A stretch of DNA of 64,000 nucleotides. Source: Candidatus Poribacteria bacterium (lineage in GTDB: Bacteria > Poribacteria > WGA-4E > WGA-3G). The translations under genes and the position numbers were made by a program. The notes beneath the pieces are model-generated. The model saw only the letters and a program-made list of their open reading frames with translations, had not been told where the DNA came from and did no database searches. Positions 40,630 through 56,441 of the stretch are shown piece by piece. The stretch's first letter is position 1. Each line of letters opens with the position of its first letter. The stretch spans positions 259,060 to 323,059 of the forward strand of contig CBDBFU010000013.1 of NCBI GenBank assembly GCA_965205025.1, in the 5' to 3' direction.

Positions 40630-41313
40630 ATGGTCAATCATATTAAAAACCGGTTACGTCAAAACCGCTTTTTAGCACCTTTAATGGGATGTCCATATCC
40701 TGCTCCACGATGGAATCGATCCGTAAAACGTGTGATTCGTGAACTCGGAACAGATACCTGTATATTGGATTTAGGTTCGGGTATACATCGTCGTGCAGAA
40801 AATGTCATTAATCTTGAAATATCAGTAACGCCTATGGTGGATGTGGTAGGGGATGGACACGTTCTACCGTTTGCAGACAACGTTTTTGATGCTGTAATAT
40901 CAGAAGCAGTGTTAGAACACGTACATGATCCACAGATGGTAGTTGCTGAGATGTATCGTGTGTTGAAACCGGGTGGATATATATGTGCTGCTGTGCCATT
41001 TTTACAAGGATATCATGCATCCCCTCACGATTACCAACGGTGGACAACAACTGGATTTGTTACTTTATTTTCTGATTTTATAGAAGTTGAAAGTGGTGCA
41101 TGTGCAGGTCCAACGACAGCATTACATTGGGTTTTTCGCGAATATATTGGCTTGATTTTCTCTTTTGGTAGTTTGTTGATTGCTAAAGCAGTATCACTAT
41201 TGGTCGGATGGTTAACATTTCCGTTAGTATGGTTAGATACATTGTTAATGTTACATCCACATTCACATATATTAGCATCTGCAGTATATTTTATAGGTAA
41301 AAAAGAGGGATAG
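40630..41313 (+). CDS. Class I SAM-dependent methyltransferase
   Basis: ILDLGSG, LPFADNVFD, VLEHV, RVLKPGG. Confidence 0.88.
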   Translation: MVNHIKNRLRQNRFLAPLMGCPYPAPRWNRSVKRVIRELGTDTCILDLGSGIHRRAENVINLEISVTPMVDVVGDGHVLPFADNVFDAVISEAVLEHVHDPQMVVAEMYRVLKPGGYICAAVPFLQGYHASPHDYQRWTTTGFVTLFSDFIEVESGACAGPTTALHWVFREYIGLIFSFGSLLIAKAVSLLVGWLTFPLVWLDTLLMLHPHSHILASAVYFIGKKEG

Positions 41314-50943: not shown

Positions 50944-51630
50944 TCAAATTTCCTCTTGACGTTGCTGATGGTATTTTTCTAATTCACTGTTTGCATTGAT
51001 GATTGTCTCTAACTTCTCAATGATAGTGGCAATATGTTTACCAGGGAAGGCAAAGTAGAAATCATCATCAGAAAGTCCAGTATAAACCCTGTTACCTATA
51101 CACCCTAAACTGCTTGCGGTTTGTCCCGAATCCAGGACAGCAGGTATGACAGCACATGTAGGTCTCCCCATGACACTGTTATCTGTTCCAATACCGGCAG
51201 CGGTTGCTGCTTCTGTTAATAACATCATCTGTTTAGGTGTACCTGATACAAGAACAACATCAGGTATATTAGCAACATCTTCTAATGGAGAATACACTGC
51301 ATTCTGGAATGCCTCGTCCCGCTTAGGTATCCCAGGAACTTCATCCATTGAAATATAACCAAGTTCTCCCATGAGTCCAAGAGTATTTTCCAATTCCTTC
51401 ATCTGTTCATCTGGTAATTCCACATTATGCGTATAACATCCAATTGGACAGTTATAGTGGTCAGATGCCTCCGTATAGAAGGTCTTACCCTCCGATGCAC
51501 GTTTCCAATATGTGCACCCTGAGGCTTCCACTCTATGCACGCGAGAGACATCATTTGGTTGTGATTCATGAAATGTTACTGCGATGGGTGCGGTATCCAA
51601 TTCGAGTAATTCCTGTAATTGTTCTGACAT
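50944..51630 (-). CDS. DUF169 family protein (Cys-rich)
   Basis: PIAV, GCTYW, NCPIG, PDVVLV..TPKQMM, PTCA, LGCIGNR. Confidence 0.75.
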   Translation of the reverse strand: MSEQLQELLELDTAPIAVTFHESQPNDVSRVHRVEASGCTYWKRASEGKTFYTEASDHYNCPIGCYTHNVELPDEQMKELENTLGLMGELGYISMDEVPGIPKRDEAFQNAVYSPLEDVANIPDVVLVSGTPKQMMLLTEAATAAGIGTDNSVMGRPTCAVIPAVLDSGQTASSLGCIGNRVYTGLSDDDFYFAFPGKHIATIIEKLETIINANSELEKYHQQRQEEI

Positions 51631-51712: not shown

Positions 51713-53116
51713 TTAAATCTGTATTGGGGCAAACTGCCCATCAGTTGGTTCCGCTCAGCAGAACCACGCTTCTGTAATTCGGGGTGCGGATAAATGGGTC
51801 TTTTTCTTTATCTTAGGTGGAGATTTTCCACTTAATTCTATTGCTACTTTCCATATACGATAGAAAGTATTCAAGGAATCAACACCTGTTAGGGTATCAT
51901 CTTCCACTAAGCTATTAACTGTTTTATGTAGTTCATCCATCCGGATGTCAGGATGTTCCCAAATATAACTAAAGGCTGATTCATCAAGTGTTAGGGATAG
52001 TGCTTTTAACTCAGGACGATTAAGTAAGTATGATCCGGGTGGAATTAACAAACGAACAGCAAACTGAACTGGATCAACATGGTAGACAAGACGATGGGTA
52101 TCAACGAATTCAAATATTTCAAGATAGTCGTCTAAGGTTGTCCACGGTGTAAACGGAACCCAGGTAGGTCGTAATGCAATTCCAGCACTATGAACAATCT
52201 CAATTGCGTCTTCAACATCAGAACGAGTATGATGTTTTTCTAAAATCGTCAACACATTATCACTTAGTGATTCCACAGCAGAGATAACAAAACGACAACC
52301 GAGTTCTGCGAATTCTGGAAAGTGTTTGCTGTGTTTTAGAATATGCTCAACTTTAGTGGTGAAATCAAAGGTAAGATTAGGATAGGTGTCGTGCATTTCC
52401 CGTAGGATACGGAGACCATGCAGTGGACCATTCAGAAAATCCGGATCACCGAATGTAATATGTGTAGCACCTTCCGCAACCTGTTTGTGTATTTCTCTCA
52501 GTACTGTATCTTGAGGTATGGGATAGAATTTTCCGTTATACACTGGAGGAATGGGACAATGTGTACAAAGATGTTTACACCCATGCGTTGTTTCTGTATA
52601 ACCAACGTGTCGTACCTCGCCGTTATCCTCAAATTGCGCATACTTCTCTAAGGAGGGTAGATTATCAACTGGCACGTCTGATAAGGGTAATTCCTGCTCT
52701 TCATTTTTTGAAAGAGACTGTACCAAGTCCACAAGTTGTTCAGAAACATCACCCTTACCTATACAGTAATCAACACCGATTGAAAGTAGATAATCTGCAT
52801 TAAGTTCCGCATAGAGTCCATACATGCATATTACAACATCTGGATTGAGATCACGAATACGGTGTTGTAAGTGAACACCAAGCCGAAGTGCAGTATGCAT
52901 TGGGACAGAGATACCGATAAACTTTGCCTGTTTGACCTTCTCAGTATCCAGTGGTTCAACGGCAATATCTATTGTATTAGGTAAGAATCCTGCATCTTCA
53001 AGTACATCAAGTGGACGCGTCAACCCTATAGGACGGTGTCCGAGTTCGTAACAGGATATTAGTAGGACAGCCCCAGAAGAGTGCATCAATGAGAGTATAG
53101 GAGTTTTTTCATTCAT
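51713..53116 (-). CDS. CUAEP-tail radical SAM selenoprotein (Sec at UGA 51755-51757)
   Basis: CKHLCTHC radical SAM motif; reading through TGA gives ...EAWFC-U-AEPTDGQFAPIQI* ending at TAA 51713-51715. Confidence 0.82.
51727..51739 (-). promoter_or_regulatory. Putative bacterial SECIS hairpin
   Basis: mRNA GGGCA-GUU-UGCCC starting 15 nt after the UGA, with G as the first loop base. Confidence 0.6.
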
Positions 53117-54986: not shown

Positions 54987-56441
54987 TATAGGCGTCAATT
55001 TAAGAAAAAGGATGTCTGATTTTTCAATAATAATTATTGTTAAGTGAAAACACCTCCTATATAATGTATAAAAATATTACCTTTTACTTTATACAAGAGG
55101 TATTTCCAATGAATACATTATCACAGGTTCCTGAAAAAATGCAACAGATTCTAACAACCATTGCTGATGAAGCAGCCCTTGAAACAGGATTTTGCAAAAG
55201 AAATCGAAAACTTGCGGGGAGTCATTTTGCTCAGACACTTATTTATAGTTGGTTAGAAAATCCTGATGCCACCTATACTCAACTTACACATACTGCTGCT
55301 TCTCTCGGTACTCCAATCTCACGACAAGCGATTGAACAACGATTTACTGCTGAAGCTACACAAACCCTCAAAGCAATCCTTGACGCGGCTGCGTCCGAAA
55401 TGATTTCCGCGGATCCACAAGTTCTTCCACTCCTTGAACAGTTCAACGGTATCTATATACAAGACAGTTCTTGGATAATACTCCCTGATACGCTTCACGA
55501 TATTTGGGAAGGCGCCGGTAAAAAGGATTATCCGAACAAATCCGAAGTGAAACTCCATCTACGCTTCGATGTTGCTACAGGTACCTTTGAACACTTTCAA
55601 CTCACCAACGGTATCACTGCTGATAGCACTGTAGAAAAACAGATTGACCGGCTCCCCCAAGGGAGTTTACGCCTTGCGGATCTCGGTTATTTTTCACTAC
55701 AAACCCTACAAGAACTTACGGATGAAGGCGTGTTTTGGATTTCACGGTATAAAGTTAGGTGTTCCCTTTTTGACAATACAGAAAAGCCTCTTTGTTTACA
55801 TAAATGGCTCAAGTTTCAGACCGAAAACATTATCGAAACAGATATTTTCATAGGTACAAAAAAGCGGATGAAAGTAAGATTAGTAGCTCAGAGACTCTCC
55901 GAAGAAGAAACCGAAAAACGACGACGAGATATCAACTATCGTGCCAAACGAAAGCATACACAAGCATCACAGGCACGGCTCCAACTCGCAGGTTGGAATA
56001 TCTACATTACAAATATTGGAACGGATCAACTCACTGCTGAACAGATATGTGTCATTGCGCGGATTCGATGGCAGATCGAATTGATATTTAAGTGCTTTAA
56101 AAGTCTAGGAAAAGTAGACACATCTCGAAGTAAAAAACCGTATCGTATTCTATGTGAAATGTATGCTAAACTGATTGTCGCAATCATTCGGCATTGGGTG
56201 ATGTTGGTCATAGGATGGCGATGTTTACGGCATAGTCTATCGAAAACAGTAGATCTTATTACATCCTACACACGCACAATCACAACAAACTTTCGCAAGT
56301 CTAAGAAGCATCTTAGGCAGACATTTGATGAAATAAAACAAGTATTCGAAACAGGATGCTATATTGAGAGACGAGCTAATAGAAAAACAACATTGGAATA
56401 TCTTGAAAATGCTACAAAAAAACACTAAATTGACGCCTATG
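54987..56441 (+). mobile_element. IS4-family insertion sequence
   Basis: TIRs TATAGGCGTCAATTTA (54987) and TAAATTGACGCCTATG (ends 56441) bracket the transposase. Confidence 0.85.
55109..56428 (+). CDS. IS4 family DDE transposase
   Basis: IQDSS, LADLGYF, RIRWQIELIFKCFKS; ATG after GAGG at 55109. Confidence 0.9.
   Translation: MNTLSQVPEKMQQILTTIADEAALETGFCKRNRKLAGSHFAQTLIYSWLENPDATYTQLTHTAASLGTPISRQAIEQRFTAEATQTLKAILDAAASEMISADPQVLPLLEQFNGIYIQDSSWIILPDTLHDIWEGAGKKDYPNKSEVKLHLRFDVATGTFEHFQLTNGITADSTVEKQIDRLPQGSLRLADLGYFSLQTLQELTDEGVFWISRYKVRCSLFDNTEKPLCLHKWLKFQTENIIETDIFIGTKKRMKVRLVAQRLSEEETEKRRRDINYRAKRKHTQASQARLQLAGWNIYITNIGTDQLTAEQICVIARIRWQIELIFKCFKSLGKVDTSRSKKPYRILCEMYAKLIVAIIRHWVMLVIGWRCLRHSLSKTVDLITSYTRTITTNFRKSKKHLRQTFDEIKQVFETGCYIERRANRKTTLEYLENATKKH

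Follow-up and report, generated by a model that had tools for sequence, protein, structure and literature searches.

A predicted radical SAM selenoprotein with a Cys-Sec tail shares its pattern of presence and absence with an ATP-grasp ligase in Poribacteria

A radical SAM gene that continues past an in-frame TGA

The gene described here lies on the minus strand of the window (the whole stretch of 64,000 nucleotides that was analysed), where an ORF from 53116 to 51755 encodes 453 amino acids, ends with the residues WFC and is followed directly by a TGA. With the TGA read as U, the frame runs on as AEPTDGQFAPIQI until a TAA at 51715-51713, giving a product of 467 aa with the predicted features listed in Table 1. 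A scan of the locus for promoters and terminators gave results at chance level. The window also holds a 463-aa ORF on the plus strand (55037-56428), which we take to resemble an IS4-type transposase.

Table 1. Positions of the gene, its predicted features, the DUF169 neighbour and the TGA codons of the partner ligase (window coordinates unless a locus is named)
Feature	Position	Strand	Remark
CUAEP-tail radical SAM gene, predicted selenoprotein, full gene	51713..53116	-	467 aa; start M1 or M11
Predicted domain order: N-terminal Rossmann (B12-binding-like), radical SAM barrel, helical hairpin, Cys-Sec tail	51713..53116	-	
CxxxCxxC motif (C180, C184, C187; CKHLCTHC), predicted radical SAM [4Fe-4S] ligands	52556..52579	-	invariant in homologs
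Cys453-Sec454 (TGC TGA), predicted vicinal CU pair	51755..51760	-	homologs: Cys or TGA only
Read-through tail AEPTDGQFAPIQI	51716..51754	-	overlooked by table-11 annotation
Putative SECIS upper stem-loop GGGCA-GUU-UGCCC (alternative GGGC-AGUUU-GCCC)	51727..51739	-	begins 15 nt after UGA
DUF169 (COG2043) protein	50944..51630	-	82 nt downstream of enzyme, same strand
TGA codon in partner ligase	L265:2392, L266:2404, L267:2404, L269:2404	gene strand	genomes G087, G152, G148, G067

A hidden selenoprotein had been proposed at this site by a sequence-only reading of the window, and the comparison of homologs bears it out. Among 150 family representatives, the protein carries W-x-C-C in 48, ends exactly at W-x-C in 38 and shows another residue at the site in none, the remaining 64 without a tail being fragments or ArsL. 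At the DNA level, TGA followed by AEPT was found in 34/34 Poribacteria loci examined (a few of them duplicates), and 80 metagenome loci divided into 65 with TGA, eight with TGC or TGT and seven without the tail. AEP is retained in the alignment, and homologs ending at WFC without it were not the pattern found. All four genes of the selenocysteine machinery that were looked for (selA, selB, selC and selD) are present in the 95.5% complete genome, with tRNA-Sec adjoining selB on contig C20, selA on C11 and selD on C4. The selD gene (G000:C4:104148-105074, locus L003) appears to encode a selenoprotein too, with an in-frame TGA in CAG-U-ASK.

The putative SECIS stem starts exactly 15 nt past the UGA (51739-51727), where the sequence-only reading had placed it. 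Taken by itself, the hairpin of the window does not fold better than chance (z = -0.37, with 68 of 200 shuffles folding equally well), and a stem in the same register follows 15 of the 640 TGA-ended ORFs of at least 200 aa in this genome. Across the family, a stem of at least 4 bp occupies the fixed position in 85 of 89 distinct TGA genes vs none of eight TGC/TGT genes (97 distinct 40-mers, scored in one of two fixed registers), and 1000 rounds of synonymous-codon resampling gave 17.5 stems on average and never more than 30, against the 85 observed in TGA genes. The stem also covaries: in 70 TGA sequences 96.3% of cells are paired and 77 cells are compensatory, a level reached in 0 of 500 shuffles, with 22–57% pairing in slid controls, although these figures are not to be read as probabilities because the set was picked for its register (5-nt loop; 70 of 71 such sequences), which favours the result, and its sequences are related. 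A second register, with a 4-nt loop (C-AGUU-G) and five fully paired positions, occurs in 18 metagenome loci, e.g. L053, L059 and L063. With a G near the start of its loop, some 20 nt from the UGA, the hairpin of the window has the layout expected of a bacterial SECIS, for which the numbers are reportedly those of Zhang and Gladyshev from 2005. The part of PMC9312934 available to us confirms the general requirement for a SECIS in bacteria, and the general requirement only. What had been suggested as a bacterial SECIS element is a conserved, TGA-specific hairpin with compensatory changes, even though the single copy in the window would pass for chance.

We regard the TGA after WFC as very likely a selenocysteine codon, a call for which the comparative evidence (only Cys or TGA at the site, and a hairpin confined to TGA genes) is decisive and the lone hairpin is not. 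That translation really stops at the TGA, leaving WFC as the C-terminus, has a negligible probability in our judgement: the unremarkable folding of the window's own hairpin would suit it, but the AEP tail conserved behind the TGA in the Poribacteria and metagenome loci counted above, the covariation of a hairpin confined to TGA genes and the complete Sec machinery all argue against it.

Family membership and predicted fold

The sequence-only reading had assigned the protein to a CUAEP/CCAEP-tail radical SAM family, and it passes the cut-off of the corresponding model, NF040546, with 590.7 bits against 500 over the whole model length, the C-terminal C-U/C-A-E-P motif of that family being present as WFCUAEPT on read-through. 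The ArsL model NF040542 comes second with 319.7 bits, under its cut-off of 450, and any other NCBIfam model scores at most 44 bits. In the portion of 10.1101/2022.07.06.499078 open to us, NF040546 is named as an uncharacterised family and CU motifs are tied to heavy-metal chemistry; the string CUAEP is absent from the accessible part of the 2026 review PMC13188914. The gene is, then, a further member of a named family, shortened by standard annotation. That family is common, with the enzyme in 105 of 151 Poribacteria genomes and hundreds of metagenome matches; a contig search with the single protein as query returned six Poribacteria loci at 74–85% identity. One cultured carrier is Thermomicrobium roseum, where a CDS bearing the family name on plasmid NC_011961.1 (L040:9941-11377) stops at the TGA, and AEP and the hairpin lie beyond. 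Protein P0097 is intermediate in character, combining an ArsL-like N-terminus (STYESGFQ, PMFH) with CxxxCxHCP and an NFCCAEP tail, and five proteins (P0009, P0276-P0279), probably of one clade, fuse a CCAEP radical SAM enzyme to a MerB-like (alkylmercury lyase) domain.

Predicted structures reached a pLDDT of 93.9 without the tail and 93.7 with it, and the tail itself was modelled as ordered (pLDDT 89 and 87 in the final two blocks), with a helix at 459-466. The top structural matches of the model are OxsB, TsrM, AprD4 and MiaB at 11–17% identity, and a PDB sequence search with the enzyme returned 0 matches. A B12-binding-like Rossmann fold is present in the model, and the Pfam B12-binding score of 25.4 stays under the cut-off of 32.1. 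The CxxxCxxC motif is invariant across sets of 64 and 65 aligned homologs and is also present in ArsL.

An unlinked ATP-grasp ligase is kept or lost with the enzyme

Among the 151 Poribacteria genomes, the enzyme is found in 105, an ATP-grasp ligase in 108, selA in 144 and recA in 145, and the ligase is present in 105/105 enzyme-bearing genomes vs 3/46 enzyme-less ones. Assembly gaps seem to account for the three genomes with the ligase alone: DUF169 of G071 begins at base 58 of its contig; G146, at 81% completeness, is also without DUF169 and the SDR; and in G002 the sulfatase is missing as well. Within the source's family (100 genomes, counted as both / enzyme only / partner only / neither), the ligase gives 69/0/3/28, DUF169 69/0/2/29 and the adjacent sulfatase 62/7/19/12. 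On a selA tree of 95 of these genomes (the five without selA being excluded), those lacking enzyme, ligase and DUF169 form 12 groups, some weakly separated, on a single gene tree that cannot tell loss from gain. Independent pairs for enzyme and ligase changed the same way in eight cases and the opposite way in none, with no difference in two (p = 0.008). Loss of the enzyme through loss of the Sec machinery was rejected, given selA in 144 of 151 genomes, and three candidate partners were discarded: the upstream sulfatase, kept in 19 of 31 enzyme-less family genomes and not significant in independent pairs, and the downstream SDR and NfuA, each kept in 97 of 99 family genomes.

With the flanking genes and NfuA removed, the system comes to two core genes and one accessory. 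In the source genome the enzyme is followed by DUF169, whereas the ligase sits on a different contig, unlinked to it (G000:C7:211196-212473); the locus adds evidence from an unlinked enzyme–ligase arrangement. We treat DUF169 as an accessory partner because it was matched in just 2 of 36 genomes of two other Poribacteria families (E 1e-30). A PDB sequence search with DUF169 returned 0 matches, an Atlas search returned DUF169 clusters only, and no function was found in the literature; in sources available to us in part, DUF169 turns up close to hgcAB-like genes in Nitrospina, and a STRING list for a selenium gene includes it.

The 80 metagenome loci, many of them short, carry Nfu in 29, an ATP-grasp protein of the L-amino-acid-ligase type in 17, DUF169 in eight, YggX in eight, Mrp in four and HesB in four, and 37 carry none of these. 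AtuA, enoyl-CoA hydratase, subtilase and TolC/RND neighbours recur in about 15–20 metagenome loci and are taken as the synteny of one lineage. Among loci from other Poribacteria families (L245, L247, L248, L250-L252), the enzyme adjoins NfuA, a SufR-like regulator, or IscU and HesB, and in the source's own family a DMF-amidase beta-subunit-like protein (PF20254) is repeatedly encoded upstream of it, e.g. at L009:3374-4858. Fusions of enzyme and ligase comprise one clean case, P0115, and two doubtful ones that look frameshifted.

The partner ligase has the domains ATP-grasp_4 and LAL_C2, and its nearest solved relative is the L-amino acid ligase BL00235 (PDB 3VOT; profile E 6e-62), with BacD at 1e-31; no NCBIfam model reaches its cut-off against it. 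BL00235 is listed as producing Met-Gly and Met-Met in the part of PMC6920838 available to us. The position after IGGx in 41 ligase loci is Cys in 37, TGA in four and nothing else. The TGA, found in 4 of 108 genomes and in all four at the invariant IGGL-C cysteine, is followed by 116–117 intact aa, with synonymous changes outnumbering non-synonymous ones in 6/6 pairs; the four genomes belong to one clade, which includes a fifth genome with Cys. A hairpin follows the site in 4/4 TGA genes and also in 12/37 Cys genes and so is not TGA-specific. None of the selenoprotein reviews searched contains the term 'ATP-grasp'. Judged by its coding pattern, the TGA-bearing ligase is a candidate for an uncatalogued selenoprotein. 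In G151, G081, G145, G121, G070 and G100, the ligase match starts only at residue 139-196, in open frames of 377–512 aa.

ArsL genes are located in ars clusters according to PMC8552651, as far as that source was available, and the two ArsL clusters examined here both have an ars setting and both contain an ATP-grasp ligase. A comparison of ArsL-cluster proteins with 105 CUAEP loci (1.16 Mb) returned, besides ligases, one weak ArsR-like and two weak methyltransferase matches, and no ars cluster, exporter or self-resistance context adjoins the enzyme in the loci examined. The 95%-complete source genome has no ArsM above cut-off, no Acr3 and no YggX; a class I SAM methyltransferase on the plus strand of the window (40630-41313) was rejected as ArsM (E 2e-6 over 48 aa, 31 bits vs a cut-off of 263). 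The suggestion that As(III) is the substrate is left unsupported by these searches, and by a tail one Cys short of that of ArsL.

A possible route from SAM to a dipeptide

Because enzyme and ligase are kept or lost together, they likely make an unknown small molecule. We tentatively favour, with slightly less than even confidence, a route in which the enzyme would transfer the ACP (aminocarboxypropyl) group of SAM, in the manner of ArsL, to a soft atom bound by the Cys-Sec pair; the ligase would then couple the product to an amine, giving a dipeptide. SAM would be cleaved in the ArsL manner to MTA and ACP, not to 5'-deoxyadenosine, a step proposed from overall similarity to ArsL. A two-point Cys-Sec grip on the soft atom would replace the three thiolates of ArsL (by analogy, it is plausible that the pair holds a soft metalloid), and the transfer would yield a methionine-like amino acid. 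The ligase would make the amide bond, its invariant Cys (predicted Sec in four genomes) touching the same soft atom, and neighbours such as Nfu, YggX or Mrp may keep the cluster loaded as general helpers.

This ACP-transfer and ligation route is proposed because ArsL is the nearest characterised family, because the ligase is lost with, adjacent to or fused to the enzyme, and because BL00235 gives Met products. The ATP-grasp ligases in both ArsL clusters, the MerB fusions and the Cys or TGA in 41/41 ligase loci also count for it, and the ligase's distance from ArsL-cluster ligases (24–28% identity), the probable single-clade origin of the MerB fusions, the doubtful ligase fusions and the retention of NfuA count against it, as does the fact that homocysteine- or methionine-type products are cheaper via ordinary routes. 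As for the acceptor, a substituted trivalent metalloid such as methylarsenite is possible, although we would not expect it: a substituted trivalent arsenical would suit the two-point grip, and both the kinship with ArsL and the fusions to MerB-like domains favour one, but the lack of ars genes does not fit, and the source genome has no ArsM to supply methylarsenite. A sulfur or selenium species supplied by the Fe-S machinery, which we hold to be rather doubtful, fits the Fe-S neighbourhood, yet would be metabolically odd.

Several other readings of the same data deserve consideration. In animal thioredoxin reductase a C-terminal Cys-Sec pair serves as a redox relay, and CC/CU interchange is typical of redox pairs. 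The tail could likewise be a two-electron relay, with radical chemistry, canonical or ACP-type, acting on an organic substrate that the ligase either makes or uses, a reading that we consider unlikely if worth taking seriously. Fe-S and redox genes do neighbour the enzyme in 39 of 80 metagenome loci, and the fold is like that of OxsB, TsrM, AprD4 and MiaB, which all act on organic substrates; those folds, however, are 11–17% identical to the enzyme vs 36–38% for ArsL, the tail is docked in the predicted model and is not a free arm, no reductase partner co-occurs among the neighbourhoods examined, and a thiophilic substrate explains the ligase's own Cys/Sec more easily.

In diphthamide synthesis, ACP transfer is followed by ATP-dependent amidation, and a comparable modification of a protein or cofactor, with ACP put on a target residue and its carboxyl amidated by the ligase, would suit a single-copy gene of mostly vertical inheritance without transporters. 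Despite the precedent of the ACP-transfer step (10.1101/2024.02.01.577332), such a modification seems to us very unlikely, since no conserved target gene was found in 80 metagenome and 18 Poribacteria neighbourhoods, the ligase groups with small-molecule L-amino-acid ligases and the CU tail would be left without a role. Nor do we expect the enzyme to have the function of ArsL itself, its tail binding inorganic As(III) on the way to hydroxyarsinothricin, be it to detoxify arsenic or to produce an antibiotic. ArsL binds As(III) through three cysteines and this tail offers two ligands, no ars cluster was found in 105 loci and the 95%-complete genome has neither ArsM nor Acr3; this makes the idea quite improbable even with ArsL as the closest characterised family, ATP-grasp ligases in both ArsL clusters and CU motifs tied to heavy-metal chemistry (10.1101/2022.07.06.499078, in the part available).

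Many uncultured soil and marine bacteria may run an undescribed two-enzyme pathway that would be the housekeeping sister of arsinothricin synthesis, with a selenoenzyme making a carbon–metalloid or carbon–chalcogen bond from SAM and a Cys/Sec ligase converting the product into a dipeptide, a picture that we offer as a real possibility with the balance somewhat against it. The ligase would in that case also be an uncatalogued selenoprotein family, and, were the ACP chemistry true, the enzyme would be a second ACP-forming family of canonical radical SAM enzymes, probably with a new natural product. The question matters because the family is widespread and uncharacterised, while its close relative ArsL stands out among radical SAM enzymes in that it releases the ACP group.

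Comparison with ArsL and other known systems

ArsL splits SAM into MTA and an ACP radical, requires its RCCLKC tail to make AST-OH and was active without added cobalamin in assays (10.1101/2024.02.01.577332). In the part of 10.64898/2026.04.29.721666 available to us, As is bound by all three ArsL tail cysteines, and replacement of a single Cys by Ala reportedly abolishes activity; the review PMC13598754, likewise available in part, describes an ArsL 'MCCA' mutant as most active on methylarsenate, which we take to mean the third ArsL Cys changed to Ala. The kinship with ArsL suspected from the sequence is apparent both in NF040542 as second-best model and in an alignment of 67 CUAEP/CCAEP and six ArsL-type proteins, in which 47 of 68 well-conserved positions are common and 21 differ, the latter including H186, H296, M73, E449 and W451. 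Both enzymes have the same two-domain layout, at 36–38% identity, and a vicinal Cys pair at the C-terminus. The predicted Cys-Sec tail, however, offers two ligands and no third Cys, in contrast to the three cysteines of RCCLKC, and lies about 45 residues further on, so that the two CC pairs may not be equivalent. The radical SAM motif is CxxxCxHCP in the enzyme and CxxxCxYCS in ArsL, and ArsL resides in an ars cluster with ArsM, ArsR and an exporter, none of which is found at the enzyme locus.

Similar differences extend to the partner, which is only 24–28% identical to the ArsL-cluster ligases and whose IGGx is followed by an invariant Cys (or TGA), a site at which BL00235 (3VOT) and BacD carry a residue other than Cys in the alignment. 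The cobalamin-dependent OxsB and TsrM and the cobalamin-free AprD4 have an N-terminal Rossmann domain in common with the enzyme, at only 14–17% identity. From NF040546 itself there is no sequence difference; to this family without an assigned substrate our analysis adds a test of the SECIS hairpin and a search for partner genes.
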